Source: a virus. Taken from it: a stretch of DNA of 64,000 nucleotides. The notes beneath the pieces are model-generated. The model made no database searches, was not told the origin of the DNA, and worked only from the letters and a program-made list of their open reading frames with translations. Position 1 is the first letter of the stretch; each line of letters starts with the position of its first letter. This document shows positions 28,250-57,788 of the stretch, piece by piece. Where the stretch lies: the IMG/VR virus record IMGVR_UViG_3300045988_124082; one strand, given 5' to 3'. The position numbers and the translations under genes are program-made.

Positions 28250-28291
28250 TATAAGCCCGTGAGCTCGAAAGACATCACAGGACAACCTAAA

Positions 28292-28377: not shown

Positions 28378-28382
28378 AAAAG

Positions 28383-28474
28383 CGTACAGAGTGGGCTACG
28401 ACCCCACGTTACATGTATTCGCATGTAAACCCAATTAGCAGTCGGGCGCCTTAAACCAACTCAGCCATCTGTAC
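28383..28474 (-). tRNA. tRNA-Ser (anticodon GCT), long variable arm
   Basis: GTACAGA/TCTGTAC acceptor, CCCGA-CTGCTAA-TTGGG anticodon arm, 7-bp variable arm TTACATG..CATGTAA. The T loop GTCGTAG is atypical. Confidence 0.65.
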
Positions 28475-40729: not shown

Positions 40730-41026
40730 ATGTGGGAAATTGGAGATAGAGTGGTTGTTACTAAAGCCCCAGGTAGAACAATTGTAGCTAAGCTAGGCTA
40801 CAAGGGAACAGTTATTGATGTAGTAGATACAAGCGTACTTGTTGAATTTGATAAATACATTGGTGGACATAGTGGAAGTTGGAGTTCTCGTAACGGAAAG
40901 TTCGGACATTGTTATTGGCTACATCAGCTTGACGATGCAGACACAATTGGGGCTTATGTAGACTTTGCTTTAAGAGAAGAAGACTGTGTGTGTAAGAAAC
41001 TTAAAAAGAAAAACAACTTCTACTAA
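40730..41026 (+). CDS. C-tail-tagged small protein 1 (family A, GDRV..GTV..VEFD..GGH..GHCYW)
   Basis: Ends ..KKKNNFY*. MWEIGDRVVV N-terminus. Confidence 0.7.
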   Translation: MWEIGDRVVVTKAPGRTIVAKLGYKGTVIDVVDTSVLVEFDKYIGGHSGSWSSRNGKFGHCYWLHQLDDADTIGAYVDFALREEDCVCKKLKKKNNFY

Positions 41027-41044
41027 AAGAAAGGCAGGGCAAAC

Positions 41045-41344
41045 ATGAGAGAACTTAAACTTGAAGATTGTAAAGTTGGGATGACTCTTAAGCTAAAGGA
41101 AGATTGTCCTTTTAGAAAGTATTGGGAAATAGATCCTAAGGAACCGGTAAAGTGCATTGTCCTAGAGGTGACCGAGAGTCAAATAGATAGCATTTTTGTA
41201 GATATCTACTATAAAAATGGGCGAAAATGTGTCCCGAGGAATTGGTATTTCTATACAGAAGATTCAATAATAGAGGCTAACGGTTATGAACTAATCTCAA
41301 AGAACTTAGAGTATCCGAACAAGCGAAAGAACAATTATTACTAA
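41045..41344 (+). CDS. C-tail-tagged small protein 2 (family B, ..EDC.VG..)
   Basis: Ends ..KRKNNYY*. The next SD starts right after the stop. Confidence 0.7.
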   Translation: MRELKLEDCKVGMTLKLKEDCPFRKYWEIDPKEPVKCIVLEVTESQIDSIFVDIYYKNGRKCVPRNWYFYTEDSIIEANGYELISKNLEYPNKRKNNYY

Positions 41345-41354
41345 GAGGTGTAAT

Positions 41355-41681
41355 ATGCAGAAAGAAAGAGAAATTCAATTTGAAGATTGTCATATTGGCG
41401 ATGTTTTTAAGTTAGATAGACGCTCGCCATGGGTTGTGGAATGGATAATGGAATCAAATGGATACATCCCTAGAGAAGAAATCACAGCAGAGATTGTACA
41501 TATGATAAATAATGGTGACGTCAAAGAAGTTGGAATAAATGTTTATATAGGTAAAGCTTCATATGATCATTATGATACTTCTTATCTCCGAGAGGGAAGT
41601 AGGTATAAGGAAGACAATCTTGAAATGAATCTTAAAATGAAAAATCGTATCAAAGCAGGAAGAAAGAACAATTATTATTAG
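41355..41681 (+). CDS. C-tail-tagged small protein 3 (family B)
   Basis: REIQFEDCHIGDVF. Ends ..GRKNNYY*. Confidence 0.7.
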   Translation: MQKEREIQFEDCHIGDVFKLDRRSPWVVEWIMESNGYIPREEITAEIVHMINNGDVKEVGINVYIGKASYDHYDTSYLREGSRYKEDNLEMNLKMKNRIKAGRKNNYY

Positions 41682-41691
41682 GAGTGGTTAT

Positions 41692-42000
41692 ATGAAGACA
41701 AAAGAAAGGGAAATTCGATTCGAAGATTGCCATGTTGGAGATGTACTTAGGTTAAAAACAAGATGTCCTTTTGTGGAATTTTACCTTACATCTGAAGAAA
41801 TTCCTGTAGCAAAAGAAGATAAGGTCACCGCAACAGTAGTTCACAAAGAAAAAGATATTCTTGATGTAATAGTACATATAAATGGAAAAAGATGTGAACT
41901 ATATTGGGATTGTTGGCTTACAAGTTCTACGGCTTATCGTGAACATAGTTTTCACATTAATGTCGATTCAAAGATTAATCGAAAGAACAACTATTATTAG
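41692..42000 (+). CDS. C-tail-tagged small protein 4 (family B)
   Basis: REIRFEDCHVGDVL. Ends ..NRKNNYY*. Confidence 0.7.
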   Translation: MKTKEREIRFEDCHVGDVLRLKTRCPFVEFYLTSEEIPVAKEDKVTATVVHKEKDILDVIVHINGKRCELYWDCWLTSSTAYREHSFHINVDSKINRKNNYY

Positions 42001-42025
42001 ATATAAGAGAAAGGAAAATAAGACT

Positions 42026-42319
42026 ATGGGATATTTTAAAGTAGGAGATAGAGTAGAAGTTATTAAAAGCCATACCGAGGATTCATGTATTGATCACTAT
42101 GCTCCTGTAGGGCTTAAAGGAACTGTAGTTTATACAGAACCGAGACGTTTGACAAGGCAAATAGCTGTTGAGTTTGATAAGTCTTTTAAAGAAGGACACG
42201 GTTGTGATGGAAAAGTAAGAGGTAAGCGAGGGCAGTGGTATGAATATGATCCACATTCCAATATATATTGGAAAAATTGCTTAAAAATCTTATCCAAAAA
42301 GAAAAACAACTATTACTAA
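42026..42319 (+). CDS. C-tail-tagged small protein 5 (family A)
   Basis: Start moved to MGYFKVGDRVEV behind AAAGGAAAA; the track start 41882 overlaps gene 4. Ends ..KKKNNYY*. Confidence 0.7.
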   Translation: MGYFKVGDRVEVIKSHTEDSCIDHYAPVGLKGTVVYTEPRRLTRQIAVEFDKSFKEGHGCDGKVRGKRGQWYEYDPHSNIYWKNCLKILSKKKNNYY

Positions 42320-42366
42320 AGGTATTTCAAAATCAGTGGAGTGATTTTTGTTAATACATGAAGAAA

Positions 42367-42391
42367 GGCGGGATTTATTCCCGTCTTTTTT
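42367..42391 (+). terminator. rho-independent terminator
   Basis: GGCGGGAtttatTCCCGTC followed by TTTTTT. Confidence 0.65.
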
Positions 42392-42412
42392 CAAAATAGA
42401 AAGGAAATTAAG

Positions 42413-42808
42413 ATGAGCAAATTTAGATATTTAAATGAAGAAGAAACAAAAGTGTTATTACAGGTAACAGAATGGTTAGATAATCATTTCTTTAGTCCAG
42501 AAAATAAATTCGATGAAGAATATTTTGAGAAATACATGAGAGCAATCATTGACAACACAAGAGAAATGTACGAAGCGGTATACATTTGTGTGAACACAAA
42601 ACCTGTAACTGTAATGATTTATGACTATGTGCTTGACATTATTATTACCGATGCACAAGTTGACAAAGAAGATAGAGAGATTGTAGAGATTGCCTTTACA
42701 ACTTGGTTAATAAACATGACAGATAAACCATTTGAAAAGATTTTTGAATGGATGATTGAAGAAAGTTACAGGGGAAGAAAAGGAAGAGAGGATGAAGATA
42801 ATGAATAG
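42413..42808 (+). CDS. hypothetical protein (untagged)
   Basis: 131-aa ORF with RBS GAAAGGAAA. Ends ..REDEDNE. Confidence 0.5.
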   Translation: MSKFRYLNEEETKVLLQVTEWLDNHFFSPENKFDEEYFEKYMRAIIDNTREMYEAVYICVNTKPVTVMIYDYVLDIIITDAQVDKEDREIVEIAFTTWLINMTDKPFEKIFEWMIEESYRGRKGREDEDNE

Positions 42809-42944
42809 ATTTGAAACAGTAATGAAGTTAATTTGTTGGATTGCAGCAGTGACATTGGCATGGATGCACGTTTCAATTGTTGCAGTGATTGCACTTGCAT
42901 TGGTTGGAACTTTTGGAAGCGAGGTTGATTTGAGTGCAAAGTAG
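42801..42944 (+). CDS. small membrane protein (47 aa)
   Basis: MNRFETVMKLICWIAAVTLAWMHVSIVAVIALALVGTF, with two hydrophobic segments. Confidence 0.4.
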   Translation: MNRFETVMKLICWIAAVTLAWMHVSIVAVIALALVGTFGSEVDLSAK

Positions 42945-43266
42945 AGAAACGAGAAGAAAAGTACACTTTGGAGATTGTCATGTAGGCGATGTTTTTGGAA
43001 TAGATAAAGATAGTCCTTATGTACGTAGAAAAAACAGCTTATATGATCTTGAACCATCAGATGTATTAAAGGCAAAAGTTATATATGTAGACAAAGAAGA
43101 TTCCTCCATTCGCATAAAGGCTTATGTAAATAATGAAGAGACTCCAAGATTTTCAGGTTGGCTTTACTCTTTGGTAAACAATTCAGGAATATTACTACAT
43201 AGGTCAGATTTGTTTATTGAGGACAATCTCAGATTCTTGTCAAAGAGAAAGAATAACTACTGGTAA
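42934..43266 (+). CDS. C-tail-tagged small protein 6 (family B)
   Basis: GTG start. KVHFGDCHVGDVF. Ends ..KRKNNYW*. Confidence 0.65.
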   Translation: MQSRETRRKVHFGDCHVGDVFGIDKDSPYVRRKNSLYDLEPSDVLKAKVIYVDKEDSSIRIKAYVNNEETPRFSGWLYSLVNNSGILLHRSDLFIEDNLRFLSKRKNNYW

Positions 43267-43280
43267 AGAGAGGTGTAAGG

Positions 43281-43598
43281 ATGGAAGAGAAAAGAAAAGT
43301 ATGCTTCGATGATTGCGAAGTTGGCATGTTTTTTAGGATCGATAAAGACTGTCCATGGATGTATGACAATGAGTGGATGGATGGTTTTGATACATTGACA
43401 AACGCAGATGAGTTAAAAGTTAAAATTATCGATAAAGATGCTGATGATAGCAGTGTTGAGATAGAACTTTGGGCAGATGGTCAAAAGACACATATAACAG
43501 ATTGGCTCTATCAGTTTGAAGACGATCCAGAAGACAGAATTGGAAATAACCTTGAGTTTATATTAAAGAGGAAAAATAGAAAAAATAACTATTGGTGA
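43281..43598 (+). CDS. C-tail-tagged small protein 7 (family B)
   Basis: KVCFDDCEVGMFF. Ends ..NRKNNYW*. Confidence 0.7.
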   Translation: MEEKRKVCFDDCEVGMFFRIDKDCPWMYDNEWMDGFDTLTNADELKVKIIDKDADDSSVEIELWADGQKTHITDWLYQFEDDPEDRIGNNLEFILKRKNRKNNYW

Positions 43599-43608
43599 GG
43601 TGGTGTAA

Positions 43609-43869
43609 ATGGATAATGAATTAAAAATTGGAATGAAGTTCTTAGAAGTAAAAACCGGAATTGTCTGGAAGCTTACAGATATGAATTTTATACAAGAAGG
43701 GTTTTATATAATAGACAAATCATTGTGTTTTCAAGCTGTACGTATAAATACAGACGAGGATGATGTATGGAGAAGTACATCGTCAATGATACCTAAGACA
43801 ATGCTCGAAAGAAGATTGAAAAAAGGCGAATGGAAACAAATAAACAATAGAAAAAACAATTACTATTGA
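43609..43869 (+). CDS. C-tail-tagged small protein 8 (family D)
   Basis: LKIGMKFLEVKTGIVWKLT. Ends ..NRKNNYY*. Confidence 0.7.
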   Translation: MDNELKIGMKFLEVKTGIVWKLTDMNFIQEGFYIIDKSLCFQAVRINTDEDDVWRSTSSMIPKTMLERRLKKGEWKQINNRKNNYY

Positions 43870-43891
43870 TTGATAGTAGAAAGGACATATT

Positions 43892-45025
43892 ATGGAGGAT
43901 TTAAGATTAGTAACAACAGAAGAATTTAATGGGGTTGATTGCAACTTTTACAAGGCAGATAGTAACATGTGGATGACAAGAGGACAGATTGGTAAAGCTT
44001 TAGGGTATCACAATCCAAGGATTGCAATCGGGAAAATACATACTGCACATAGAGATAGACTTGATCCACTTTCAGTTGATACCAATTTAGTGTCTACTGA
44101 TGGAAAAGAATATTCTACTTATATATATAATGAAAGAGGCATCTTTGAAATCTGTAGATGGTCAAGACAACCAAAAGCAAATGAATTTATGGATTGGGTA
44201 TGGGACATTATAGAAGCATATAGACGTGGAGAATTCCAGAGAAAGCCTAGGGAAACAGCCATTACACCTGTTGAGAAATTCTTAGATGGAATGCAGAATA
44301 TGTTCTTAGAAATGAGAGAAGAGAACAAAATATTCAAAGATACTGTGTTGAAGATTTTAGAATCTCAGCAAGGACAGGAAGTACAAAAACCTGTTGAAAA
44401 ACTTGAAGCTCAAGAGAAAACTGTTAATCAAGTAAAAACAAAACCAGCTGTTAAGTCAGTTGTTAAGATTGAAAACCCTAGATTAGACACTTGGAAGTTC
44501 GAAATTGGTGCTAAAGCAGCCTATATTGTTTTTAATGGAAATGAATATAAAACAAAAGGAAAAGTATTCTCAGCATGTTATTCAAAAATGAAGAATGTGT
44601 ATGGAATTTGTTGGTCACAGGAAAATAAAGAATACAGGAGAGCTTTCGGATTAGAATCTCAGAGAGGTAGATTAAGTACTTTAGATGTTGTATTCAATGA
44701 TGAAAATTTGAAAGACCTGTTTGACAGTATTCTTGATGGAATATATGAAAACACAAAAAGAAAAGCTATAAAGAGAAATACGGGAACCAATCCAGAAAAA
44801 GATTGGCAATATTATAAAGAAAAGATTCAAAAACTTTGTGAGCAAACAGGCAACAAAAGTTTAGGCGGAAGCTCTATTTACTCAGGAATCATTAGAAAGA
44901 TGGATGTAGATTGGAGCAAGTATGAAACAAACAAAAAGAAAACTGAATTAGTTAAAAAATATCCAGAGTTGTTTGCAGAGTTCTCTAAGACAGCGGATAA
45001 ATATTTAGAGGAGAAGTTAAAATGA
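43892..45025 (+). CDS. Bro-N domain protein
   Basis: N-terminal EEFNGVDCNFYKADSNMWMTRGQIGKALGYHNPRIAIGKIHTAHRDRL follows the Bro-N pattern. The C-terminal 250 aa are unassigned. Confidence 0.6.
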   Translation: MEDLRLVTTEEFNGVDCNFYKADSNMWMTRGQIGKALGYHNPRIAIGKIHTAHRDRLDPLSVDTNLVSTDGKEYSTYIYNERGIFEICRWSRQPKANEFMDWVWDIIEAYRRGEFQRKPRETAITPVEKFLDGMQNMFLEMREENKIFKDTVLKILESQQGQEVQKPVEKLEAQEKTVNQVKTKPAVKSVVKIENPRLDTWKFEIGAKAAYIVFNGNEYKTKGKVFSACYSKMKNVYGICWSQENKEYRRAFGLESQRGRLSTLDVVFNDENLKDLFDSILDGIYENTKRKAIKRNTGTNPEKDWQYYKEKIQKLCEQTGNKSLGGSSIYSGIIRKMDVDWSKYETNKKKTELVKKYPELFAEFSKTADKYLEEKLK

Positions 45026-45141
45026 GTATTAAAATTTTAGGACTTCGTCAAGATTGCTACAAAGTAATCATTGATGGAGTCCTTTTTAAATTCCCAACAG
45101 AACAAGAGTTTTTGGAATTCTTAGAGGAGATTGAGATATGA
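45022..45141 (+). CDS. small ORF (39 aa), translationally coupled on both sides
   Basis: Own translation MSIKILGLRQDCYKVIIDGVLFKFPTEQEFLEFLEEIEI*. ATGA overlaps at both ends. Confidence 0.4.
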   Translation: MSIKILGLRQDCYKVIIDGVLFKFPTEQEFLEFLEEIEI

Positions 45142-45416
45142 GTTTTAGATTTGAAGTAGGTCAAGAGCTGGAATTACACAATAACTTGACGGATATGAAA
45201 GTTTACATGAGATCGGGAACGGTTGTTCGTATCTTAAGTAGAAAAACAAGAATGGATCATACACAAGGGGTTGAGAGAAATCGTTACAAGATTGCATATG
45301 AATTTCATACAAGCTTTTTGGAGATTGGAGATGGTTGTTACCACTGTGGAAAAGACTTTATCTGGGAAGAAGATTTAATTAGAGCTGTCGGTCAACGGAA
45401 GAATAATTATTATTAA
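45138..45416 (+). CDS. C-tail-tagged small protein 9 (singleton family E)
   Basis: Ends ..QRKNNYY*. The body is unlike families A-D. Confidence 0.65.
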   Translation: MSFRFEVGQELELHNNLTDMKVYMRSGTVVRILSRKTRMDHTQGVERNRYKIAYEFHTSFLEIGDGCYHCGKDFIWEEDLIRAVGQRKNNYY

Positions 45417-45428
45417 GAGGTGATTAAA

Positions 45429-45698
45429 ATGTGGAAAGTCGGAGATAGAGTCGTAATTATTCAAGATGCTAGAAGAAATTTAGAATCCTTTGTAGGTTTC
45501 AAGGGAACGGTTAACTTTGCAAGTAGAGATGAGATAAGTGTAGTTTTTGACAAATATGTAAACGGTCATGACTTACTAGGGGATTGTAAAAAAGGTTATG
45601 GATGGTTTTTGTCCTCAGACGGAGAGAACGAAAACGAAGCCGAAGCAAATGGAATGAGAGTCAAGAAAATTAACAACAGAAAAAATAATTATTGGTAG
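45429..45698 (+). CDS. C-tail-tagged small protein 10 (family A)
   Basis: MWKVGDRVVI behind GAGGTG. Ends ..NRKNNYW*. Confidence 0.7.
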   Translation: MWKVGDRVVIIQDARRNLESFVGFKGTVNFASRDEISVVFDKYVNGHDLLGDCKKGYGWFLSSDGENENEAEANGMRVKKINNRKNNYW

Positions 45699-45707
45699 GT
45701 GATAGGA

Positions 45708-45980
45708 ATGTGGGAAAAAGGTACAAGAGTTAGAATTATAAAATCAAACAGACTTATGACGCAAGTTGGTATCATGGGCACTGTGGTTTACATACATAAG
45801 GATGGAAATGATCGTTTTATAGTAGAGTTTGACGAACCTATGGATGGGAATTATATGACTACTTTTTGTGATTGCAAACCGAAGTGTTGGTGGTGGTTTG
45901 ATAATGTTCCGGGGAGAGTTGTTGAAACAGATGGTATAACAATTGAAAAAATAGGAAAAAGAAAAAACAATTATTACTAA
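45708..45980 (+). CDS. C-tail-tagged small protein 11 (family A)
   Basis: MWEKGTRVRII. Ends ..KRKNNYY*. Confidence 0.7.
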   Translation: MWEKGTRVRIIKSNRLMTQVGIMGTVVYIHKDGNDRFIVEFDEPMDGNYMTTFCDCKPKCWWWFDNVPGRVVETDGITIEKIGKRKNNYY

Positions 45981-45992
45981 GGCGGTGAGAAC

Positions 45993-46340
45993 ATGTGGGA
46001 AATTGGAGATAGAGTGGCTGTTACAGACTTAGGCAAAGTCTCTCAAGAGAATTATGGAATTGAAATAAAGATTGGATACAAGGGAACTATTATCAACTTT
46101 TTAAAGATTGATGTCCCATGGAATTCTGATGAGATAATTAAATTCTTAGTAGAGTTTGACGAACCCATGGATGGACATGATGGAAATGATTTCGGTAAAA
46201 TAAGTGGGAAATCGGGACACTGTTGGTGGATGCGTGGAAACCAAGATAGTAATTTAATCAAATGGCGAGATAGCCGGGATTGTGAAGCACCATTAATATG
46301 TAAGAAAATCATGAAGAAAAGGAAAAACAATTTTTACTAA
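45993..46340 (+). CDS. C-tail-tagged small protein 12 (family A)
   Basis: MWEIGDRVAV..VEFDEPMDGHDG..GHCWW. Ends ..KRKNNFY*. Confidence 0.7.
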   Translation: MWEIGDRVAVTDLGKVSQENYGIEIKIGYKGTIINFLKIDVPWNSDEIIKFLVEFDEPMDGHDGNDFGKISGKSGHCWWMRGNQDSNLIKWRDSRDCEAPLICKKIMKKRKNNFY

Positions 46341-46355: not shown

Positions 46356-46946
46356 ATGTTTAAAGTTGGAGATAGTATTAAGATAACAAAAACAAAGATG
46401 GTTAATGATGGAATATTGGTAATAAATGATCGTTATATTCGGTTATGGTCTGTTTATGGAAAAGTAAAAAATCAACAGGAAGACGAAAAAGGTACTAAAA
46501 GCTTTATTGTAACTTTTGATAGTTGGAAAGAATTATTGGATAATGGGGATGGGGTATATAAAGAAGCGACAAATGAATGTGGATTAAATATAGTTATGTC
46601 AGAGAAAGGTGAAATATTTGATTCGGATGGAAAAGTTGTTGTTTGGTGTGAAAAACACTTACCATGGAAAGAGATAGAGGAAGGGGAAACCTATAAAATA
46701 AAACCAAATTCACGCTTATGTAAAGAAGTATTAGAATGGGTTGAATATAAATCAAAAGCTGAATTAAAAATAGACCCGAATGAACTGACTGCTATGGTTA
46801 AACACACAAATATTGCCCAGGGGCTTCTCTTAGCAGTTGTTGTTCCTCTTGTCAATGGTAAGAGAGTTACTGAACGTGGTTGGGAATTGTTTGAAAACAA
46901 TTATTCAGATCAACTTAACATAGATGACAGCATTGAAGAGTTATAA
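46356..46946 (+). CDS. hypothetical protein with family-A-like N-terminus, untagged
   Basis: MFKVGDSIKITK.., 196 aa, ends ..DDSIEEL. Confidence 0.5.
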   Translation: MFKVGDSIKITKTKMVNDGILVINDRYIRLWSVYGKVKNQQEDEKGTKSFIVTFDSWKELLDNGDGVYKEATNECGLNIVMSEKGEIFDSDGKVVVWCEKHLPWKEIEEGETYKIKPNSRLCKEVLEWVEYKSKAELKIDPNELTAMVKHTNIAQGLLLAVVVPLVNGKRVTERGWELFENNYSDQLNIDDSIEEL

Positions 46947-47147: not shown

Positions 47148-47513
47148 ATGAAAGTAGTAATCGCAGAAAACAGATTAGAGGTAGTAACAGGAATCAAAAA
47201 GGCAGACTTCGACAAACAGGTAACAGACATGACTGTTAAAGATGACAAAGGAAATGTGACATTTAAGTTAAAAGTTGGAGAACAGCCTAACATTTCAGTA
47301 CTTGGTTTAACTTGCAACACAACTGTTGACAAAGAGTTAGCGGTAACAATGATTCTTCCAATGGAAACAGATGTTGAAGAAATCAAAATCAAGTATGGTA
47401 AGGCTTTAGTAGCAGCTGAAAAGAATCTGAAAGTAATTGCTGACAGAATCGTAGCAGATACAGAAGCAGTTGATGGAATCTTTGCAGACACAGAAGAAGC
47501 AACAGAAGCCTAG
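47148..47513 (+). CDS. hypothetical protein, paralogue 1 of 48018..48362
   Basis: 121 aa with strong RBS AAAAGGAGAAAC. About 55% identical by eye to the 114-aa paralogue. Confidence 0.6.
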   Translation: MKVVIAENRLEVVTGIKKADFDKQVTDMTVKDDKGNVTFKLKVGEQPNISVLGLTCNTTVDKELAVTMILPMETDVEEIKIKYGKALVAAEKNLKVIADRIVADTEAVDGIFADTEEATEA

Positions 47514-47569: not shown

Positions 47570-47596
47570 AGGACGTCTCCCAAGGGCGTCCTTTTT
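47570..47596 (+). terminator. rho-independent terminator
   Basis: AGGACGtctcccaagggCGTCCT followed by TTTT. Confidence 0.65.
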
Positions 47597-47641: not shown

Positions 47642-47881
47642 ATGATGATCAATGTAACATTAGCAACAACAGCAGGTAAAAGTCTTGTAACAGTAGAAGG
47701 AAACCAGACTCCATCACAAGTACTTGAAGAGAACAGCGTAGCAACAACAGGAGCTACTGTATCACTCAATATGAGACCACTTGCAGATAATGAAAAAGGT
47801 AAAACTTTTGAAGAATTAGGATGCACAGATGGTGATTCCGTAATGTTATCAGCAGTTGTAAAAGCAGACTCAGCAATGTAG
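47642..47881 (+). CDS. 79-aa ThiS/MoaD/ubiquitin-like (beta-grasp) candidate, copy 1
   Basis: The size and the C-terminal pattern ..LGCTDGDSVMLSAVVKADSAM parallel ThiS ..VQDGDQILLFQVIAGG. No terminal GG. Confidence 0.4.
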   Translation: MMINVTLATTAGKSLVTVEGNQTPSQVLEENSVATTGATVSLNMRPLADNEKGKTFEELGCTDGDSVMLSAVVKADSAM

Positions 47882-48017: not shown

Positions 48018-48362
48018 ATGAAAGTATCATTAAAAGAAAACGCATTAGAAATCAACACAGAAATCAAAAAAGCTGACTTTGACAAGAAAGTAAGCAACAT
48101 GACAGTAACAAACAAAGATGGTGTACCAACATTTGTTTTACGCTGTGGAAGAGAGGGAGAAATTTCTCAGTTAGGACTTACATGTAACTCTACAATTGAC
48201 AAGAACTTAGCTGTAACAATTGTGTTGCCTCCAGAAACAAAAATGGAAGACATCAAAGTTGAATATGGTAAAGCCCTTGTAAATGCAGAAAAGGGATTAA
48301 AAGTCCTTGCTGGGAGAATTGAAGCCGATACGAAAGCTATTGATGCGATTTTTGCGGAATAG
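48018..48362 (+). CDS. hypothetical protein, paralogue 2 of 47148..47513
   Basis: 114 aa with RBS AAAAGGAGAAC. Confidence 0.6.
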   Translation: MKVSLKENALEINTEIKKADFDKKVSNMTVTNKDGVPTFVLRCGREGEISQLGLTCNSTIDKNLAVTIVLPPETKMEDIKVEYGKALVNAEKGLKVLAGRIEADTKAIDAIFAE

Positions 48363-48559: not shown

Positions 48560-48799
48560 ATGATGATCAATGTAACATTAGCAACAACAGCAGGTAAAAG
48601 TCTTGTAACAGTAGAAGGAAACCAGACTCCAAGTGAAGTGTTAGCTGAAAATAATGTAGCAACAACAGGAGCTACAATCTCTATGAATATGAGACCATTA
48701 AGTGTAGCTGAATTAACTGATACATTTGAAGAGCTTGGATGTAATGATGGTGATTCTATCATGTTATCAGCTGTAGTTAAAGCCGATTCTGCTTTCTAG
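48560..48799 (+). CDS. 79-aa ThiS/MoaD/ubiquitin-like (beta-grasp) candidate, copy 2
   Basis: The first 24 codons and the RBS are identical to copy 1, and the rest has diverged. Ends ..GDSIMLSAVVKADSAF. Confidence 0.4.
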   Translation: MMINVTLATTAGKSLVTVEGNQTPSEVLAENNVATTGATISMNMRPLSVAELTDTFEELGCNDGDSIMLSAVVKADSAF

Positions 48800-48901
48800 T
48801 TCTAGCAGGTAAAGAGAGAAGAACATGAAGAGCGTAGGTGTCATAGCCTACGTTCTTATTTTTTACTTATTAATTATATTCATAAGAAAGGAAAATACAT
48901 T

Positions 48902-50626
48902 ATGGAAGAAAGAAAATTTAAAACAAATGACTACGTGGTAGTAAAGAATTGGGATGAATTGGTTGAAGAATATGGATTGGTTGATCCCGAATCTGTTAGA
49001 GAACAGATGAGGAATGATGAGGATTGTTATTGGTCAGAAGAAGAGATTAATGAATACAATCCAGAAATCATTAATGTTCCATGGGGAGCAAGAAAAGCAA
49101 TGATTGATGAACTTGTAACTATGGGATTGATGAAGGTCAAAGAATATGGAGAAGATGGAAGTGTCCAGCTGGAAAGCGATACTTACATTGACAGTATTAT
49201 CCCAGAAGAGATTTTACAGCCTGTAAGCGAAGATGAGGTTAAGAATTATATCTTTTGGCTTAATAAAAAAGATGATGATTTTGTAATGCAGGACTACGAT
49301 TTTGCTCAAGCAAATGGATTATTAACTTATGTAGGATTGGTCAATGGAAGTATTGATTTTATCGGAGGAAACAAAGGTAATGAATTAATTGCTTATTTCT
49401 ATGCAGCATCAATTTTAAGATCAATTGATTTTAATGAGGGAGTTACAGAATATCTAAGCCATTGTCATGAAGTTAGTGTTCATACATTTGACCATTTTTA
49501 CACTGACAGAAAATCACATTTGCAGATTGTAGCGATAAAAGATGTTTCTGAGGATGGAGAAGAAGAACTTGTTAATATGTGGACAGAAAGAGGCTGGGAA
49601 GAAGTTGAATTCCACAACGATAAAGTTTTTAAGGTGTTTACTCATCCTGAGCAGAAAGGAACCACAATTTTCTTAAATGGAGAAAAAGAAGATTATAAAA
49701 AAGACTTTGAAGCTTATGAACTGATCATGCAGATTGTTAGCCATGTTTATGGAGATACAATGCAGGATGTTTTAGAAGTTGTTAGCAATAGAGATAGATC
49801 AGAAGCTATGAATATGATCCGTGATATTTTCTCAGAAGCGGATAAGCAGTATGTGAAAATCAAAAACAAAATTAATATTGAAAACTTCCTAAAGGTTGCA
49901 TCTAAAGGTCAGCAGAAACATTTAGAACGAGAAGTTCAGAATAATCAGGACAGAGTTAATAGCTATAAAGATAATCTCAGACACTCTCTTAAAACATTAA
50001 GAGAGTCACAAGAAAGACTCTTCGGATATTTACATATGAAAGATGATTCCCAGTTCAATGAAGTAAGAGAAATGTTAAACATGATGGGTGATGATTTAAG
50101 TGATTTTAGGTGTAATCCTAGCGGTGATTGGTTTAGCTTTGCAATCGTTCAGCCATTGTTATATTGGGATGATGATATTTACGAAAGAAACTTTGATGAT
50201 GAATACTTTGAAGAAGAGGCTGAATATGAAAAGACGAAAAAAGTATTCGACAAAATCTTTAAGACAAGAGAATACACTTTGTATCTACAGCAAGCAATAA
50301 TGATTGACTTGGTCAATAATAAACCAGTTGCAATGAGAGATTATAATTATACAAATGATATGTATATTCCTAATCCACATTTCCATGAGTTTAACTGTTG
50401 GGGAGCAAATGAAGCAAATTTAATTGAAGCGATTTCAAACAGAGATTATATGTCAATTTTCAATCTTGTTAGATCAGCTGTCGCTGGAATTTCTTTATAT
50501 GATACTTCTGTAGTAGGAGCTTTCTTTAATTATTGTGAAGACAGATTTACAAATAAAAAATGTCTTAAAGTTCCAGGAAGAGAAGAATTTATTTCATTCA
50601 AAGAAGCAAGAGCATTGGAGGATTAA
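48902..50626 (+). CDS. 574-aa hypothetical protein, first gene of the JAB/E1-like operon
   Basis: The stop lies 3 nt before the JAB gene. Near the C-terminus, IPNPHFHEFNCWGANE loosely resembles an E2 HPN..C active-site region (weak). Confidence 0.5.
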   Translation: MEERKFKTNDYVVVKNWDELVEEYGLVDPESVREQMRNDEDCYWSEEEINEYNPEIINVPWGARKAMIDELVTMGLMKVKEYGEDGSVQLESDTYIDSIIPEEILQPVSEDEVKNYIFWLNKKDDDFVMQDYDFAQANGLLTYVGLVNGSIDFIGGNKGNELIAYFYAASILRSIDFNEGVTEYLSHCHEVSVHTFDHFYTDRKSHLQIVAIKDVSEDGEEELVNMWTERGWEEVEFHNDKVFKVFTHPEQKGTTIFLNGEKEDYKKDFEAYELIMQIVSHVYGDTMQDVLEVVSNRDRSEAMNMIRDIFSEADKQYVKIKNKINIENFLKVASKGQQKHLEREVQNNQDRVNSYKDNLRHSLKTLRESQERLFGYLHMKDDSQFNEVREMLNMMGDDLSDFRCNPSGDWFSFAIVQPLLYWDDDIYERNFDDEYFEEEAEYEKTKKVFDKIFKTREYTLYLQQAIMIDLVNNKPVAMRDYNYTNDMYIPNPHFHEFNCWGANEANLIEAISNRDYMSIFNLVRSAVAGISLYDTSVVGAFFNYCEDRFTNKKCLKVPGREEFISFKEARALED

Positions 50627-50629: not shown

Positions 50630-51595
50630 ATGAGAAAAATTAGAATTGAAGAATTAGATGCACAGAGATTAGTACAAGAAGTGATAGCGAAAGCTATCAC
50701 TTCTATTGGTTTAACCCCAGAAAAATTACAGATGGAAATTAATCCTAATGTAAAACTTAAAGAAGAAGAGAAAATTGAGATTGCTTTTTCAGAAATGGCA
50801 GAAAAGAAAATGTATTATCTCATTCACGAATGTGAAAAAGAAATTGGTTGGCATGGACTTGTCAGTCGAAGCGAAAATGGATTCTATGTAGAAGACATTA
50901 TTGTATTCCCACAGGAAGTTACAGGAGCTACTGTAACATCAGATGATGAGCTATATCCAACTTGGATGCTTAGTCAGCCAGATGAGATTTACAATAAGAT
51001 TAGATTTCATGGACATTCACATGTAAATATGGCAACAAGTCCAAGTGGTGTAGATGATACGTATCAGGAGCAGATTATTCAACAGTTTATGTCTAGTCCA
51101 CTTGATGAAAATAATTTTTACATATTCGGCATTTTCAACAAAAAGGGAAGCTATTGGTTAAATATTTATGACATTTATAACAATAAATTTTATGAGACAG
51201 ATGATATTAGTTATGTTTTTTATCAGTCAGATGAACAGGCATGGGCTAAAGAACAGATTAAAGAGAATGTAAAAGAAGAAGTAGCTGTAAAAACAAGTGG
51301 ATATTATTCTAATGGATATGGTTATAGAGGCGGTGGATACGGAACAGAAGAGCTGTATGATACTTGGAAAAAGAACTATGATAAAAACAAAGGCAAAGAG
51401 AAGCCAAAAAAAGATGAAGCAGAGTTGCGAAAAGAATTAAGTGGAGCAATTATTGCAGATTTAACACCTCCAAAATGGCATAGTAAATGGAGTAAATGTT
51501 TACAGAGGATGATTAGCTGTGATGAAAGTCTTGATGATTTAATTGAAGAGTATTGTATTACTTATCCAGATTATAGTGGAACAAAAAAGAAATAG
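50630..51595 (+). CDS. JAB/MPN+ (JAMM) metallopeptidase with long C-terminal extension
   Basis: Complete JAMM signature: upstream Glu (IHECEKEIGWHG), then HSH-VNMATSP-S-GV-D, which is HxHx7Sx2D. Confidence 0.7.
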   Translation: MRKIRIEELDAQRLVQEVIAKAITSIGLTPEKLQMEINPNVKLKEEEKIEIAFSEMAEKKMYYLIHECEKEIGWHGLVSRSENGFYVEDIIVFPQEVTGATVTSDDELYPTWMLSQPDEIYNKIRFHGHSHVNMATSPSGVDDTYQEQIIQQFMSSPLDENNFYIFGIFNKKGSYWLNIYDIYNNKFYETDDISYVFYQSDEQAWAKEQIKENVKEEVAVKTSGYYSNGYGYRGGGYGTEELYDTWKKNYDKNKGKEKPKKDEAELRKELSGAIIADLTPPKWHSKWSKCLQRMISCDESLDDLIEEYCITYPDYSGTKKK

Positions 51596-51607
51596 AGGAG
51601 GATGATT

Positions 51608-52285
51608 ATGAATACAAGTAAAGTTTTAGAATTTTTTGATGCACAGACATTAGTTAAAAAACCAGTTCATGTAATTGGATGTGGAGCAATTGGCTCAAAT
51701 GTCGCAGAACAGCTTACAAGATTAGGAGTCTCAGTGATTCATCTCTGGGATTACGATCATGTTGAGCCTAAAAATGTAACTAATCAGATGTTCTTTGATG
51801 GGGATATCGGAAAAGCTAAGGTAGATGCAATTGAAAATTTGTGTAAGTCAATTAATCCACAGATTAAAATAATCAAACATGAAAGAGGGATTGATGATCC
51901 ATATATTCTTACAGGATATGTATTCTTATGTGTAGATAATATTGAGCTTAGAAAGAAAATCGTAGAGGCCAATAAGTTAAATCCAAACTGTATTGCGTTC
52001 TTTGATTTTAGAATGAGACTTACAGATGCACAGCATTATTTTGCTGATTGTTCAGTTAAAGAACAGGTTGAAAACTTAATTGGAACCATGAATTTTACCC
52101 ATGAAGAAGCGGCTGCAGCAACTCCTACAAGTGCTTGTGGAGTGGAATTAAGTGTATGCTATACAGTTAAGAATATTGTTTGTTATGGAATTGCAAATTT
52201 TGTTAACTTTTGCCTAGGGAATGAACCAAAACAGATGATTATTACAGATATGAAGACAATGGATGTGACAGTATTCCCTATGTAA
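51608..52285 (+). CDS. ThiF/MoeB/E1-like adenylyltransferase (minimal, about 225 aa)
   Basis: VHVIGCGAIGSNVAEQLTRLGV (GxGxxG Rossmann) followed by LWDYDHVEPKNVTNQMF (DxDxVxxxNxxRQ-like). Confidence 0.7.
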   Translation: MNTSKVLEFFDAQTLVKKPVHVIGCGAIGSNVAEQLTRLGVSVIHLWDYDHVEPKNVTNQMFFDGDIGKAKVDAIENLCKSINPQIKIIKHERGIDDPYILTGYVFLCVDNIELRKKIVEANKLNPNCIAFFDFRMRLTDAQHYFADCSVKEQVENLIGTMNFTHEEAAAATPTSACGVELSVCYTVKNIVCYGIANFVNFCLGNEPKQMIITDMKTMDVTVFPM

Positions 52286-52288: not shown

Positions 52289-52567
52289 GTGATGATCTTG
52301 ATAGAAGAAAAATATAAAGCGGTACCTAAAAATTATAAGGGGATTGTAAGACTTAAGCCAACAATAGCACGTTTCCGCCCTTATTACCATGCGTATGTTA
52401 AGTTGGAGGAGGGCTATCACTATACGGGTAATCCAGATCACACAGTATACGTTGAGTTGTACAAGACTTATCAAGATTTAACAAACAATGGTAGGTGTAT
52501 AAGGGAAGGCCTTATAGAAGAAAGAAGCTTATATGTTCCAAGAGAACGTAAGAATAATTATTGGTAG
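52289..52567 (+). CDS. C-tail-tagged small protein 13 (family C, VPKGYKG..GNPDH)
   Basis: Starts 3 nt after the E1-like stop (GTG; TTG 52298 is also possible). Ends ..ERKNNYW*. Confidence 0.65.
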   Translation: MMILIEEKYKAVPKNYKGIVRLKPTIARFRPYYHAYVKLEEGYHYTGNPDHTVYVELYKTYQDLTNNGRCIREGLIEERSLYVPRERKNNYW

Positions 52568-52575
52568 GTGAGAAT

Positions 52576-52848
52576 ATGTGGGAAAAAGGTACAAGAGTTA
52601 AGATAATAGGGGGAGCAAAAATCGGCTTAATGGGGACAGTGGTTGTTAAGTGCACAGAAACCCCTGTCAATGACATTAGAGATCGCTTCTTAGTAGAGTT
52701 TGACGAATCCATGGGTGGACATAGTGGAAATGGAGCTTATGAAGGAAAGCGGGGACATTGTTGGTGGTTTGATTATTGTTTAGAAAAGGTTACTATCACA
52801 GATGGCATAAGCATTGAGCAAGTCAAAAGGAAAAATAATTTTTACTAG
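52576..52848 (+). CDS. C-tail-tagged small protein 14 (family A)
   Basis: MWEKGTRVKII..VEFDESMGGHSG..GHCWW. Ends ..KRKNNFY*. Confidence 0.7.
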   Translation: MWEKGTRVKIIGGAKIGLMGTVVVKCTETPVNDIRDRFLVEFDESMGGHSGNGAYEGKRGHCWWFDYCLEKVTITDGISIEQVKRKNNFY

Positions 52849-52861
52849 GGGGGGTGATTAG

Positions 52862-53077
52862 ATGTGGGAAGTTGGTGACAGAGTAGTAGTTAGTAGTGCA
52901 TTTAGGCCTAAAGTGAAAGGGACAGTCATTGCTATAGATGCGGAATCTACAATGCCTGTATTGGTTAAAATAGGTGGAATAGGAACAGGTATGTGGTTCT
53001 ATGAAAATGGTGATGATTTAGTTTGGAGTGACATTACTTGCACACGAGTGAAAAAGAGGAAAAACAATTATTATTGA
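52862..53077 (+). CDS. C-tail-tagged small protein 15 (family A, short)
   Basis: MWEVGDRVVV, 71 aa. Ends ..KRKNNYY*. Confidence 0.7.
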   Translation: MWEVGDRVVVSSAFRPKVKGTVIAIDAESTMPVLVKIGGIGTGMWFYENGDDLVWSDITCTRVKKRKNNYY

Positions 53078-53093
53078 GAAAGGATGATGACAG

Positions 53094-53381
53094 GTGTTTA
53101 AGGTTGGAGATAGGATCGTACTAACAGAAGAAAGCCGTCAAAGCTGCAATATATTTCATGAACATCCGGGAGATACTGCAACGGTTATTGGAGTTTCGAA
53201 AGTATCAAGTAGGTCTGATTATGAATGTGTTTTAGAATTTGATAGACATATTGGTGGACATGATGGGTTAACCGATGCCACAGGCAAGAACGGTCATTGT
53301 GTTATCTATTATTTTGATTCAACACAGTGGGATAAGTATTTTAGGAAAATCCAAAGTAAACGTAAGAATAATTATTATTAA
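53094..53381 (+). CDS. C-tail-tagged small protein 16 (family A)
   Basis: GTG start. MFKVGDRIVL..EFDRHIGGHDG..GHCVIY. Ends ..KRKNNYY*. Confidence 0.65.
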   Translation: MFKVGDRIVLTEESRQSCNIFHEHPGDTATVIGVSKVSSRSDYECVLEFDRHIGGHDGLTDATGKNGHCVIYYFDSTQWDKYFRKIQSKRKNNYY

Positions 53382-53396
53382 GAAAGAGGTGATCGT

Positions 53397-53713
53397 ATGC
53401 CAGAGGATGTAAAGTACCGTCCAGTTCCTAAAGGGTATACAGGTGTTTTTAGGCTAAGAGAAGATACGACGTCCTTAGCCAATGAGTTTTATGGAGCATG
53501 GGGCATTATAGACGACAAATTTTTAATCGATGAAGATTATTATAATGAAGAAAATGAATTTAAGGGAGATCCCGATCATGTAATTCGAGTAAGTTTTTAT
53601 CCTAGCCTTTTAGATCTGCAAAGAGGTGAAATCTTATTAGAGAAGTAGGAAGAGTGTCTGGGACAGAAAAGTATTGTTATATTCCTTTCAAAAGAAAAAA
53701 TAATTACTATTAA
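53397..53713 (+). pseudogene. C-tail-tagged family C member 17, frame-disrupted (or frameshift-dependent)
   Basis: Frame 0 stops at 53648 (..RGEILLEK*). The family-like continuation ..LIREVGRVSGTEKYCYIPFKRKNNYY* is open in the -1 frame from about 53630 to 53713. Confidence 0.55.
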
Positions 53714-53728
53714 GAAAGAGGTAATCAA

Positions 53729-54043
53729 ATGGAAAATAATGGTATATATCCTCCAGTACCTAAGGGATACAAGGGTGTTTTTAGAGTTAGACCTGATATG
53801 ATAGGATCAGATAATATGTTCTATGAAGCATATGGTATTACAGGAAAAGGTATTATAGAAGACATTGATTATTTAGAAGGCCAAGGAGAATTTACAGGAA
53901 ATCCACATCATATAATTAAAGCCATTTTTTATCAAACCTATGAAGACTTAAAGAACAGAGAATGTATGATACAAGGAAGGCCTGTTAAAATAAAAGAACA
54001 CTTACTTTACCCCGTGTCAAACAAGAAGAACAATTACTGGTAG
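53729..54043 (+). CDS. C-tail-tagged small protein 18 (family C)
   Basis: YPPVPKGYKGVFRV..GNPHH. Ends ..NKKNNYW*. Confidence 0.7.
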   Translation: MENNGIYPPVPKGYKGVFRVRPDMIGSDNMFYEAYGITGKGIIEDIDYLEGQGEFTGNPHHIIKAIFYQTYEDLKNRECMIQGRPVKIKEHLLYPVSNKKNNYW

Positions 54044-54053
54044 GTGATTTAAG

Positions 54054-54323
54054 ATGATAGACGCAAAAGATATTAAAGAGGGTATGAAAATTAAGTATAA
54101 TGGTTGGGAATGGACTATAACAAAAGTGTTTGCAAAATATAATAATGTCTTGGATCTTCGGAATGATTGTATTAAAAAAATCATTGATCAAGATAGTTCA
54201 TTGATTTGGATTGAAGCATCGAAGAGACGCTTTGTGCCTGAATCTATGACTATGGAGTGGTTCTTTAAAGAACTGAAATATGGAACAATAAAGATTTTAA
54301 ATCGTAAAAATAATTATTATTGA
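54054..54323 (+). CDS. C-tail-tagged small protein 19 (family D)
   Basis: DIKEGMKIKYNGWEWTITK. Ends ..NRKNNYY*. Confidence 0.7.
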   Translation: MIDAKDIKEGMKIKYNGWEWTITKVFAKYNNVLDLRNDCIKKIIDQDSSLIWIEASKRRFVPESMTMEWFFKELKYGTIKILNRKNNYY

Positions 54324-54329
54324 GGTGAT

Positions 54330-54623
54330 GTGATGTATTTAGAAGACATTAAAGTTGGTCAGAAAGTGAACTATCGAGGTCATTCCTACATAATAACTAA
54401 AAATGTTGTAAAGTATCGGGGAATAATTAGACCTTATTATTCTACATATTCGTATATCAAGGAAAGTACAAATTGTCATAGATCACGAATGTATTTTCGA
54501 AGAGTAGAAAATAAAAATGAACCGATTGATGGATTTTGGTTATTATATGACGAGATTGAAGAAAAAATGGATCGAGGGCTTATTAAATTTTTGAACATGT
54601 CAAAGAAAAATAATTATTATTAA
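54330..54623 (+). CDS. C-tail-tagged small protein 20 (family D)
   Basis: DIKVGQKVNYRGHSYIITK. Ends ..SKKNNYY*. Its stop is 15 nt before the RT start. Confidence 0.7.
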   Translation: MMYLEDIKVGQKVNYRGHSYIITKNVVKYRGIIRPYYSTYSYIKESTNCHRSRMYFRRVENKNEPIDGFWLLYDEIEEKMDRGLIKFLNMSKKNNYY

Positions 54624-56996: not shown

Positions 56997-57013
56997 GAAA
57001 GGAAGAACGTAAA

Positions 57014-57775: not shown

Positions 57776-57788
57776 AGAGGGGAATTAT

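Follow-up and report, generated by a model that had tools for sequence, protein, structure and literature searches.

Small proteins of several families in a tailed phage share a constant C-terminal peptide and flank a ubiquitin-like/JAB/E1 gene module

C-terminal peptide tags and prokaryotic modules of the ubiquitin-like (Ubl) type are both kinds of system already known. Short constant C-terminal tags on unrelated proteins are rare, and ssrA, sorting signals, encapsulin peptides and EEY/F have each led to a dedicated reading machine. Among the Ubl-type modules, mobile elements carry operons that combine genes for a Ubl, a JAB, an E1, an E2 and a helical protein (PMC1779556). In the type II cyclic oligonucleotide-based antiphage signalling system (CBASS), Cap2 (E1-E2) and Cap3 (JAB) conjugate cGAS/CD-NTase, a protein that is not of the beta-grasp fold, by its C-terminus, and this C-terminus is conserved only where the E1/JAB genes are present (PMC10097602). 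Here we describe a stretch of viral DNA (IMG/VR record IMGVR_UViG_3300045988_124082; 64,000 nucleotides (nt), referred to below as the window) in which small genes of several families end in one short peptide, the tail, and in which two arrays of such genes flank a module of Ubl-like, JAB and ThiF/E1 genes. Each of the known systems shares one aspect with these tail arrays, and none shares the whole.

The window was scanned in six frames for open reading frames (ORFs) ending NN[YFW][YFW], and the ORFs over 39.5-53 kb were listed. It was found that 20 plus-strand genes end in [KN][RK]KNN[YF][YW]-stop, 12 of them in a first array and 8 in a second at 52289-54623 (Table 1), giving the tail consensus [KN]-[RK]-K-N-N-[YF]-[YW]. 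Apart from these, the scan of the window gave a single minus-strand frame of 13 codons. The original prediction had listed the 12 ORFs of the first array, and all of them were recovered with exactly the positions, lengths (86-115 amino acids (aa)) and tails it gave. While 19 of the 159 window ORFs of at least 60 aa end NYY, NYW or NFY, the motif stands at the end of 0 of 1553 ORFs in 102 unrelated viral loci (795 kb). Furthermore, no C-terminal tripeptide is common to more than two ORFs of any one of these loci, none of which is comparable to the window in this respect. The difference in motif frequency excludes chance. Our confidence is very high that the observation is real and larger than first listed.

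To compare the tail with the genes that carry it, codon usage in 165 distinct tail instances was set against that of the gene bodies. All tail wobble positions vary, in proportions mirroring body codon usage. Tail Arg is written AGA/AGG/CGT/CGA/CGG at 0.50/0.16/0.16/0.12/0.07 (bodies 0.53/0.14/0.12/0.14/0.04), Lys is AAA at 0.65 in the tail and 0.66 in the bodies, both codons are used for each of Lys, Asn and Tyr, and the stops TAA, TAG and TGA occur 67, 50 and 48 times, respectively. Among tail codon pairs compared within families, 32% show a synonymous and 15% a non-synonymous difference, against 13% and 62% in the bodies. A Nei-Gojobori comparison of 11 orthologue pairs between the window and a relative (L135, in which the 574-aa protein of the module is 65% identical) gave proportions of synonymous and non-synonymous differences (pS and pN) of 0.675 and 0.012 for six tail codons, against 0.576 and 0.301 for the bodies. 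Hence, amino-acid change is about 25-fold rarer in the tail than in the bodies, with synonymous change at least equal. A signal in the DNA or RNA is ruled out by synonymous drift at the background rate, together with a pS no lower than that of the bodies; a check for nucleotide conservation lacking such drift found none. The variety of Arg codons and the use of all three stops had been taken from the outset to mean that selection acts on the peptide and not on a nucleotide site, and both the variety and its interpretation stand.

The tail is kept in 205 of 213 homologues chosen by body similarity alone, the eight exceptions being four truncations or frameshifts, three NNNFY endings and one NNYYW. 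Across a collection of 5.8 billion proteins, it ends 119 of 120 homologues of body family A and 93 of 99 of body family B (see below). It is also predicted to be disordered: in AlphaFold2 (AF2) models, the predicted local distance difference test score (pLDDT) is <50 for family B residues 100-108 and averages 67 over the last block of family A, in agreement with the free tail originally proposed. We conclude with high confidence that the tail is a short, free and probably flexible C-terminal peptide under very strong selection at the peptide level.

A peptide conserved in this manner could also act in cis, with nascent ...KNNYY slowing termination for re-initiation, or with the last 21 nt serving as a DNA or RNA site such as a promoter, a recombination joint or an A/U-rich enhancer. 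The next Shine-Dalgarno sequence and start lie within about 1-20 nt of each tail-gene stop, as had been predicted, and the stop is usually embedded in that Shine-Dalgarno sequence or 1-10 nt from it; the codons for K, N, Y and F are A/T-rich, and a cis effect at the peptide level would likewise be independent of the body fold. Against this stand the wobble drift, which excludes the nucleotide version (Ser in the SLL tails of another lineage, described below, uses TCN as well as AGY), and a promoter scan in which promoter-like matches were at shuffled expectation. Moreover, a gap of 93-188 nt separates some tail genes from what comes next (42319-42413; the t12 orthologue in L001), and the tail-less genes within the arrays are coupled to their neighbours just as tightly. 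No stalling peptide known to us resembles five chemically different tails. Action in cis is thus the explanation to which we attach the least probability, a very small one.

The bodies that carry the tail were grouped by BLASTP with the last 8 residues removed, giving family A with 8 genes, B with 5, C with 3 (a count that takes in the frameshifted t17), D1/D2 with 2, D3 with 1 and S with 1. Tail-less family alignments were then built from 236 distinct tail proteins of the window and related loci. Comparison of these alignments with hhalign revealed no relation between A, B, C, S and D, a relation between D1 and D2 (87%) and a weak one between D1 and D3. An apparent relation between A and B (hhalign 90%) was rejected, as the alignment rested on the tail and was gone once tails had been removed. 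The AF2 model of family A is a six-stranded barrel (pLDDT 81), and 38 of 66 family members match Pfam SH3_12 (PF18129, the Xrn1 SH3-like domain; best E 3.6e-7). The SH3_12 gathering cut-off of 26.2 bits is exceeded by t05, several window paralogues fall under it, and wider relatives score 64-68 bits. For family B, the model (pLDDT 82) is a barrel with an inserted helix and a weak likeness to Tudor and FeoA SH3-like domains, while D1 weakly matches the KOW-like domain of EF-P. Searches of the tail proteins against PHROGs, PADLOC and NCBIfam returned nothing useful, and Foldseek of family A against viral models found only uncharacterised SH3/KOW-like phage proteins. The tail bodies are thus of at least five families without detectable sequence similarity. 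A small beta-barrel (SH3/Tudor/KOW-like) is the probable architecture of A, B and D. The unrelatedness of the bodies claimed in the original prediction therefore holds at the level of sequence and need not extend to fold class.

Structurally, the nearest described counterpart of family A is the CAP-Gly domain. This is an SH3-like barrel of small size whose loop reads G-x-[NH]-D-G, and for recognition it needs a terminal aromatic residue with a free carboxylate, as in the EEY/F-COOH ends of tubulin, EB1 and CLIP-170. The domain reads EEY/F through its GKNDG groove (PMC9062740). This raises the possibility that the reader lies inside the array itself, with CAP-Gly-like family A binding the -NN[YF][YW]-COOH tails of fellow array proteins, its own paralogues included, in head-to-tail networks like those of microtubule plus-end tracking proteins; CLIP-170 indeed carries both reader and tail. 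The best Foldseek matches of family A in the PDB are p150Glued, CLIP-170 and TBCB (probability about 1.0, E 0.03-0.5, template modelling score 0.5-0.65), the family A profile matches the p150 CAP-Gly over its full length (E 0.3-1), and 4 of 66 members match Pfam CAP_GLY (best E 4.2e-4). With hhalign, the match reaches 81% against p150 alone and 93% against six sequences, five of which were entered by hand, placing G-G-[HN]-[DS]-G over GKNDG. All of these E-values are marginal, however, and family A is formally nearer to SH3_12, which matches far more of its members; no window copy matches the Pfam CAP-Gly model (PF01302), and the corresponding loop is missing in 15 of 99 family A members. The CAP-Gly domain is eukaryotic, with a basic groove for an acidic tail, whereas the phage tail is basic. 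In addition, SH3-like members of the other lineages carry their own tail and lack the GGHxG motif, and more than 1,000 protein clusters contain the family A domain without such tails, for the most part in tandem copies. It is this wide occurrence, seen in an exhaustive search, that led us to down-weight a reader within the array, which we now consider improbable.

In that exhaustive hidden Markov model search, a tail-less family A profile matched 1401 cluster representatives, most of them proteins of 150-1000 aa with two to six tandem copies over the SH3_12 cut-off. The best 150 yielded 144 new sequences; the tail is absent from all 113 large multi-repeat proteins among them and present in 13 of the 31 small ones. 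These 13 resemble members of the clade to which the window belongs. A domain so widespread without the tail indicates that the tail is an addition specific to the clade. Family B has no relatives outside the clade. Among the matches listed for a tail-DNA pattern in IMG/VR, all were either chance matches away from ORF ends (0 tails) or from this clade (many). A tandem-tail pattern gave only 4 low-GC chance matches in 185,579 representative genomes, none at ORF ends, and thus no clue to a prophage or host. Distant clade members, with a 574-aa protein 48-65% identical, keep the tails in smaller number and with drift to KKTNNYY, STKNNYW and HKKNNYY. A megablast search of the region against GenBank phages found no match. 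The family A repeat itself (FKVGDRV...GTV...VEFDE.I.GH.G...GK.GHGWW) recurs in many proteins of 300-1000 aa and is structurally closest to CAP-Gly; Pfam captures it only partly, as SH3_12 or DUF4314.

Several further features of the arrays were observed. The t17 gene is intact as 105 aa in the relatives L001-L008, so that its frameshift in the window is either a recent pseudogene or an assembly error. The first array is followed by a plus-strand gene for 196 aa (46356-46946) with an SH3-like N-terminus (MFKVGDSIKI...) and without a tail; it is missing in the close relatives L001-L004, where a 188-nt gap is found instead. In L007 and L008, an IS605 OrfB/TnpB (Cas12f-like) gene at 8657-9766 interrupts the second tail array, and an RRXRR/HNH gene lies downstream of the reverse transcriptase (RT) at 14178-15432.

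Table 1 Tail genes of the two arrays and genes of the module between them, with coordinates in the window.
Feature	Coordinates	Strand	Body family or product	C-terminal end or motif
t01	40730-41026	+	family A (SH3_12/CAP-Gly-like barrel)	KKKNNFY
t02	41045-41344	+	family B	KRKNNYY
t03	41355-41681	+	family B (AF2: alpha/beta barrel, tail residues 100-108 predicted disordered)	GRKNNYY
t04	41692-42000	+	family B	NRKNNYY
t05	42026-42319	+	family A (Pfam SH3_12 30.1 bits, over cut-off)	KKKNNYY
t06	42934-43266	+	family B	KRKNNYW
t07	43281-43598	+	family B	NRKNNYW
t08	43609-43869	+	family D3	NRKNNYY
t09	45138-45416	+	singleton family S	QRKNNYY
t10	45429-45698	+	family A	NRKNNYW
t11	45708-45980	+	family A	KRKNNYY
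t12	45993-46340	+	family A	KRKNNFY
121-aa protein	47148-47513	+	first gene of conserved module	
79-aa Ubl-like protein	47642-47881	+	putative beta-grasp, from sequence pattern only	...VVKADSAM
114-aa protein	48018-48362	+	paralogue of 121-aa protein	
second 79-aa Ubl-like protein	48560-48799	+		...KADSAF
574-aa protein	48902-50626	+	module protein	PNPHFHEFNCWG, C-terminal, invariant across lineages
JAB/MPN+ protein	50630-51595	+	metallopeptidase, 321 aa	HSHVNMATSPSGVD, matching HxHx7SxxD
ThiF/E1-like protein	51602-52285	+	adenylating enzyme, 227 aa	
t13	52289-52567	+	family C	ERKNNYW
t14	52576-52848	+	family A (AF2 pLDDT 81; best PDB fold matches CAP-Gly)	KRKNNFY
t15	52862-53077	+	family A, short form	KRKNNYY
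t16	53094-53381	+	family A	KRKNNYY
t17	53397-53713	+	family C, frameshifted (53397-53648 + 53630-53713)	KRKNNYY (second frame)
t18	53729-54043	+	family C	NKKNNYW
t19	54054-54323	+	family D1 (weak EFP_N KOW-like match)	NRKNNYY
t20	54330-54623	+	family D2	SKKNNYY

The module flanked by the two arrays consists of a ~120 aa protein, a ~79 aa Ubl-like protein, a ~450-630 aa protein, a JAB and a ThiF/E1. The ThiF protein matches PF00899 with an E of 9.6e-22 and 77.7 bits (cut-off 28.1), and weakly matches the PRTRC_ThiF and CBASS/6A-MBL E1 models. In the JAB, H129-S-H131-VNMATSP-S139-GV-D142 is invariant in four divergent orthologues; the protein has no Pfam match, and its profile found nothing meaningful among PDB sequences. 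The alternating sequence pattern seen in ThiS/MoaD-like beta-grasp proteins recurs in the 79-aa proteins, which invariably end MLSAVVKADSA[MF] and match no Pfam, NCBIfam or PDB sequence model. Across lineages, the ends of the Ubl-like proteins are conserved as KADSA(A) with or without M/F, VKAAAA or NALAA, in a comparison that included L156 8106-8348, L157 7778-8014 and L193 8034-8273. The KADSA or KADSAA end may be followed by one extra residue (M, F, A or V) that varies by paralogue and lineage, and this variable last residue resembles the one-residue cap removed from ubiquitin-like precursors.

The large module protein cannot be aligned between lineages in its N-terminal half, yet its C-terminal [PI][NQ]PH-x3-[YFH]-x-C-[WFLM]-G is invariant in 19 divergent orthologues (L135-L226). 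From its residues, this NPH...C motif is a candidate E2-like catalytic His/Cys site. The 574-aa protein of the window matched nothing in Pfam, NCBIfam, PADLOC or PDB sequences, nor any E2 model; a word-indexed search found only 6 homologues, and its N-terminus showed no relation to family A. Strong terminator-like hairpins, with stems of 9 and 12 bp and a T run, stand at 47570-47592 and 48828-48857 (+), after the 121-aa gene and the second Ubl-like gene, respectively; none lies inside the tail arrays.

In composition, this module resembles the Ubl/E1/E2/JAB operons of mobile elements (class 6d of Iyer, Burroughs & Aravind 2006, PRTRC-type; Bil, Bub). It shares with them the ThiF/E1 and the JAMM JAB; the other likenesses are a Ubl-like protein of small size, a large protein that bears a conserved His/Cys motif, and one more small protein. 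It differs in being phage-encoded, with a gene order fixed across many gut-phage lineages and often followed by a UG27 RT, and in that none of its proteins other than the E1 reaches a sequence model in Pfam, NCBIfam, PADLOC or the PDB. Searches of the literature with the motif returned only irrelevant strings, and searches for phage Ubl/E1/JAB systems with tagged clients gave nothing, in keeping with the original remark that no described phage system of this kind was known. Likewise, we know of no described Ubl/JAB/E1 system that is accompanied by arrays of tagged small proteins.

The combination of arrays and module is not limited to the clade of the window. A tblastn search with the ThiF protein found, at 46% identity, the GenBank gut-phage scaffold MT835544, whose genes follow the order of the module (141 aa, 78 aa Ubl-like, 491 aa, JAB, ThiF) and which carries, on both sides of it, twelve proteins of 67-107 aa that all end E-C-x-C-x-S-L-L. 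An alignment of four divergent JAB proteins led to more than 228 IMG/VR relatives, and the 80 loci examined (about 20 kb each, all module-bearing) were subjected to a census of C-terminal k-mers. The ECxCxSLL tail was found in about 30 loci including MT835544, with 5-13 tail genes per 20 kb. An acidic ...D-[VI]-x-x-L-L tail ends 15 and 24 genes in L167 and L193, F-[SD]-G-[VI]-[ED]-[ED]-L-I(-A) ends 5-7 genes in L166, some of them between JAB and ThiF, and [VI]-S-I-[SR]-[NK]-L-I ends 4-5 genes in L224. Thus at least five lineages with the module, this clade and at least four others, carry arrays, each with a constant tail of its own. A pair of hydrophobic residues (YY/YW/FY, LL or LI) closes every one of the five tail types. 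As in the window, the tails of the other lineages sit on many unrelated bodies (the 24 tail ORFs of L193 fall into 15 BLASTP clusters) and are written with varied codons: five or six serve for Leu, both TCN and AGY for Ser, and more than one stop is used. These loci hold the full module, including a 78-79 aa Ubl-like protein ending KADSAAA, KADSAVA or KTDNATR. On a neighbour-joining tree of ThiF, the array-bearing lineages are scattered among array-less ones, which suggests repeated origin or turnover of arrays beside the module. No arrays were found in three ThiF- or RT-bearing phages without the module (Bacteroides phage BS-TP1, a Xanthomonas jumbo phage and Dulem virus 41). The co-occurrence of the tail with ThiF, JAB and RT genes, raised as a check in the original prediction, therefore extends to E1 and JAB, seen in at least five module lineages, and does not extend to the RT, as a UG27 phage without the module has no array.

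On this evidence we tentatively favour the view that the tail is a lineage-specific free docking tag, read by a co-evolving phage protein that most likely belongs to the Ubl/JAB/E1 module. The tag changes wholesale between lineages, implying that its reader co-evolves and is probably phage-encoded; and the arrays flank or interleave with the module in five lineages that are not mutual closest relatives, which makes the module the most likely place for the reader. That the tag is read at all, that its reader lies within the module and how the two are coupled are conclusions we infer from these patterns. We have moderate confidence in the coupling of the arrays to the module and low confidence in its mechanism. 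In this reading, the phage lineage of the window has placed the heptapeptide on about 20 small, mostly beta-barrel binding modules, a variable body with a constant tail being the layout expected of a family of adaptors or substrates. Each body would bind something different, and the common tail would deliver all of them to one partner. That partner would be the module gene set, with the rapidly diverging 450-630 aa protein and the JAB as obvious candidate readers. The module might accordingly act on the tail proteins as substrates, by Ubl conjugation or JAB processing, or use them as interchangeable adaptors that set its specificity. A comparable layout, with variable binding bodies and a constant C-terminal element that recruits a ligase, is known from the poxvirus ankyrin/PRANC F-box-like families. 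PRANC is a folded domain of about 30-50 residues that hijacks the host Skp1-Cullin-F-box ligase and is joined to one body fold, whereas the phage tail is a free C-terminus of 5-7 residues on several unrelated bodies, and the candidate machine is phage-encoded.

Several observations weigh against a docking tag read by the module. The module already has a Ubl-like substrate of its own. In about 35 of the 80 module-bearing loci there is no shared tail within 10 kb, and these include the closest relatives of the clade (L156, L160 and L162), in which ThiF is directly followed by the UG27 RT; hence the module works without arrays. The association of arrays and module could reflect a shared hyper-variable early region and not function. 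All array-positive loci were reached via the JAB gene, which places arrays without a module outside the sample. Finally, the reader may be encoded by the putative host instead.

A different coupling, set out in the original prediction as carboxylate activation or trimming, would make the tail proteins themselves the modifiers: the JAB would trim the hydrophobic dipeptide, ThiF/E1 would adenylate the exposed carboxylate (Asn), and the domains would be conjugated. Short C-terminal caps are a known target of JAB enzymes, of which QbsD reportedly removes Cys-Phe from QbsE, and a C-terminal Asn is the adenylated end in the MccA/MccB pair. The interleaving of the arrays with JAB and ThiF fits such a role, as does the small or polar residue that precedes the hydrophobic pair in most tails, and in CBASS an E1-E2/JAB pair is already known to act on the C-terminal end of a non-beta-grasp protein (PMC10097602). 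CBASS, however, has one substrate, ending in Gly or Ala, while the phage has about 20 per genome ending in Tyr/Trp/Phe (Leu/Ile elsewhere) and a separate Ubl-like protein. The C-terminal Gly or Ala on which CBASS conjugation depends is absent from the tails, which end in Y/W in this clade and L/I in others, and bulky residues at the C-terminus abolish the CBASS reaction (Ser, Val, Arg and Trp all do so; PMC10097602), the one known conjugation of a non-Ubl protein by an E1/JAB system. A dedicated Ubl-like protein of 78-80 aa is retained in every lineage; its KADSA(A) end of small residues, with or without a cap, is like that of a JAB-trimmed precursor, and this protein is the natural and better E1 substrate. 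Residue -3, which trimming would expose, is highly variable in the acidic-LL lineage, and the 227-aa ThiF is without an extra peptide-clamp domain. For these reasons docking is more likely than direct activation of the tail carboxylate, which becomes the least likely coupling; that the tail proteins act as modifiers appears improbable.

The docking reading can be taken one step further, to a form of modular addressing in which the phage Ubl/E2-like/JAB/E1 machine reads a lineage-specific C-terminal zip code (KNNYY, ECxCxSLL, DVxxLL, GVEELI or SISNLI). This is a possible but more doubtful proposal than docking as such. Any small binding domain that gained the code would become a client. Clients might be exchangeable substrate receptors that steer Ubl conjugation to different host proteins, or an effector pool switched together by the JAB or the Ubl. 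Code and reader would co-evolve, and the arrays would have arisen or been re-coded repeatedly. In this clade up to a fifth of the phage early-region genes carry the tag, which is under far stronger selection than the proteins bearing it, and the same design occurs with other tags in several abundant uncultured lineages of human-gut phages. If the module does read the tag, it would become the first Ubl system of a phage for which a client family is defined, and would offer a handle on dozens of hypothetical early proteins, with the tag as a direct bait for its partner. The tags could also be used for annotating these proteins and for targeting proteins in phage-infected cells.

Whether the reader is instead a host protein has to be considered from the setting of the arrays in the phage genome. 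The window is part of a large tailed phage, with tape-measure, portal, terminase and nuclease genes on the minus strand from 1 to about 34.7 kb. Its relatives are metagenomic contigs of about 70-230 kb, mostly 110-175 kb, from human gut samples. The portal protein shares 26-30% identity with its counterparts in large Bacillota siphoviruses, namely Brevibacillus phage Sundance, the Bacillus phages Kirov and Thrax2 and the Lactococcus 949-like phages. A Firmicute host is suggested by this similarity, the strength of the Shine-Dalgarno sites and a GC content of 35%. From about 36 kb, all genes are on the plus strand and include Bro-N, RT, Thg1-like, Lar-like and anti-repressor-like genes, so that the region looks like an early or accessory one.

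A host machine, be it a ClpXP-type or Lon-type protease, a tail-specific protease or another hub, could in this setting read the tail as a degron or hub-binding peptide. It would thereby time the destruction of early proteins or send all of them to one host target, and the tails would differ as hosts differ. Known C-terminal degrons (ssrA, ...LAA) and PDZ ligands present a hydrophobic free C-terminus, and so do the five tail types, with their terminal hydrophobic pair and free carboxylate. The position of the genes beside Bro-N, Lar-like and anti-repressor-like genes suits such timing, and a GC content that varies by lineage (0.34 against 0.45-0.50) fits different hosts. Host hubs, however, are conserved and their ligands usually vary little, while the residues upstream of the hydrophobic pair are basic, Cys-rich or acidic depending on the tail. 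Strict conservation over 5-7 residues goes beyond the needs of known C-terminal degrons, and a host reader leaves the interleaving of the arrays with the Ubl/JAB/E1 module unexplained. We consider a host reader unlikely, although it carries more weight than any other alternative to a reader encoded in the module.

The tail could also be a virion-targeting signal that binds inside the procapsid, with the small proteins packaged and injected along with the DNA. Encapsulin cargo peptides and the T4 capsid-targeting sequence likewise join unrelated proteins to one reader by a short terminal peptide that differs between lineages, and a co-evolving, phage-encoded reader (capsid or scaffold) would explain why the tails are lineage-specific. 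Encapsulin cargo genes, however, stand beside the gene of the HK97-fold shell that reads them. In the window, the portal, terminase and putative capsid genes are on the minus strand at about 16-23 kb and the tail genes on the plus strand at 40.7-54.6 kb, up to about 24 kb from the head genes. The tail genes are on the opposite strand, at least 6 kb from head genes (about 19-24 kb in the case of the portal and putative capsid genes), and in a region of early type. Moreover, capsid proteins evolve slowly and the tails differ radically between lineages, and the link to the Ubl/JAB/E1 module is again unexplained. We give this explanation little credence, to much the same degree as a role of the tail proteins as modifiers.

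The RT that follows the second array was identified as UG27 (PADLOC E 1.3e-164). UG27 systems comprise the RT, a non-coding RNA and two or three proteins, and have been found in over 1,400 dereplicated viral genomes from the gut, which span several families; the paper describing them makes no mention of ThiF or JAB (PMC9226505). The RT was rejected as a partner of the tail, as UG27 is widespread and Bacteroides phage BS-TP1 has an RT and no array. Searches for related loci returned only members of this clade and thus no distant UG27 loci. A diversity-generating retroelement was also rejected, since the RT region and the arrays share no long repeat of the template/variable kind and the RT belongs to UG27; the tail Asn codons, whose AAY form is typical of such elements and had prompted the test, are invariant at the protein level. 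At 54639-58286, the UG27 RT is followed by a 520-nt non-coding stretch and by genes for 178, 265 and 165 aa, matching the published layout of UG27 RT, non-coding RNA and clusters 336/337/346. A 30-nt inverted repeat lies inside the non-coding stretch at 56315-56402. In several lineages the RT is directly 3' of ThiF, an adjacency absent from the UG27 paper, and between sub-clades the RT is 85-93% identical where the 574-aa protein is only 48-65% identical.

Other features of the phage genome were observed outside the arrays and the module. Seven tRNAs (Thr, Gln, Trp, Arg, Tyr, Ser, Ser) lie at 27025-28474, and within this cluster is a full-length ROOL RNA (27357-27968, minus strand; Rfam RF03087, 305 bits). 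A group I intron (24072-24404, minus strand; Rfam RF00028, 62.5 bits) overlaps the start of a 339-aa ORF at 24367-25386. On the plus strand, a 150-nt match to the Rfam tRNA model at 62140-62289 (43.7 bits, no ARAGORN call) could be an intron-containing or degenerate tRNA. The early region also holds, at 59398-60192 (+), a Thg1-like gene of the tRNA-His guanylyltransferase family that all relatives conserve, with Pfam PF04446 matched in L001-L008.

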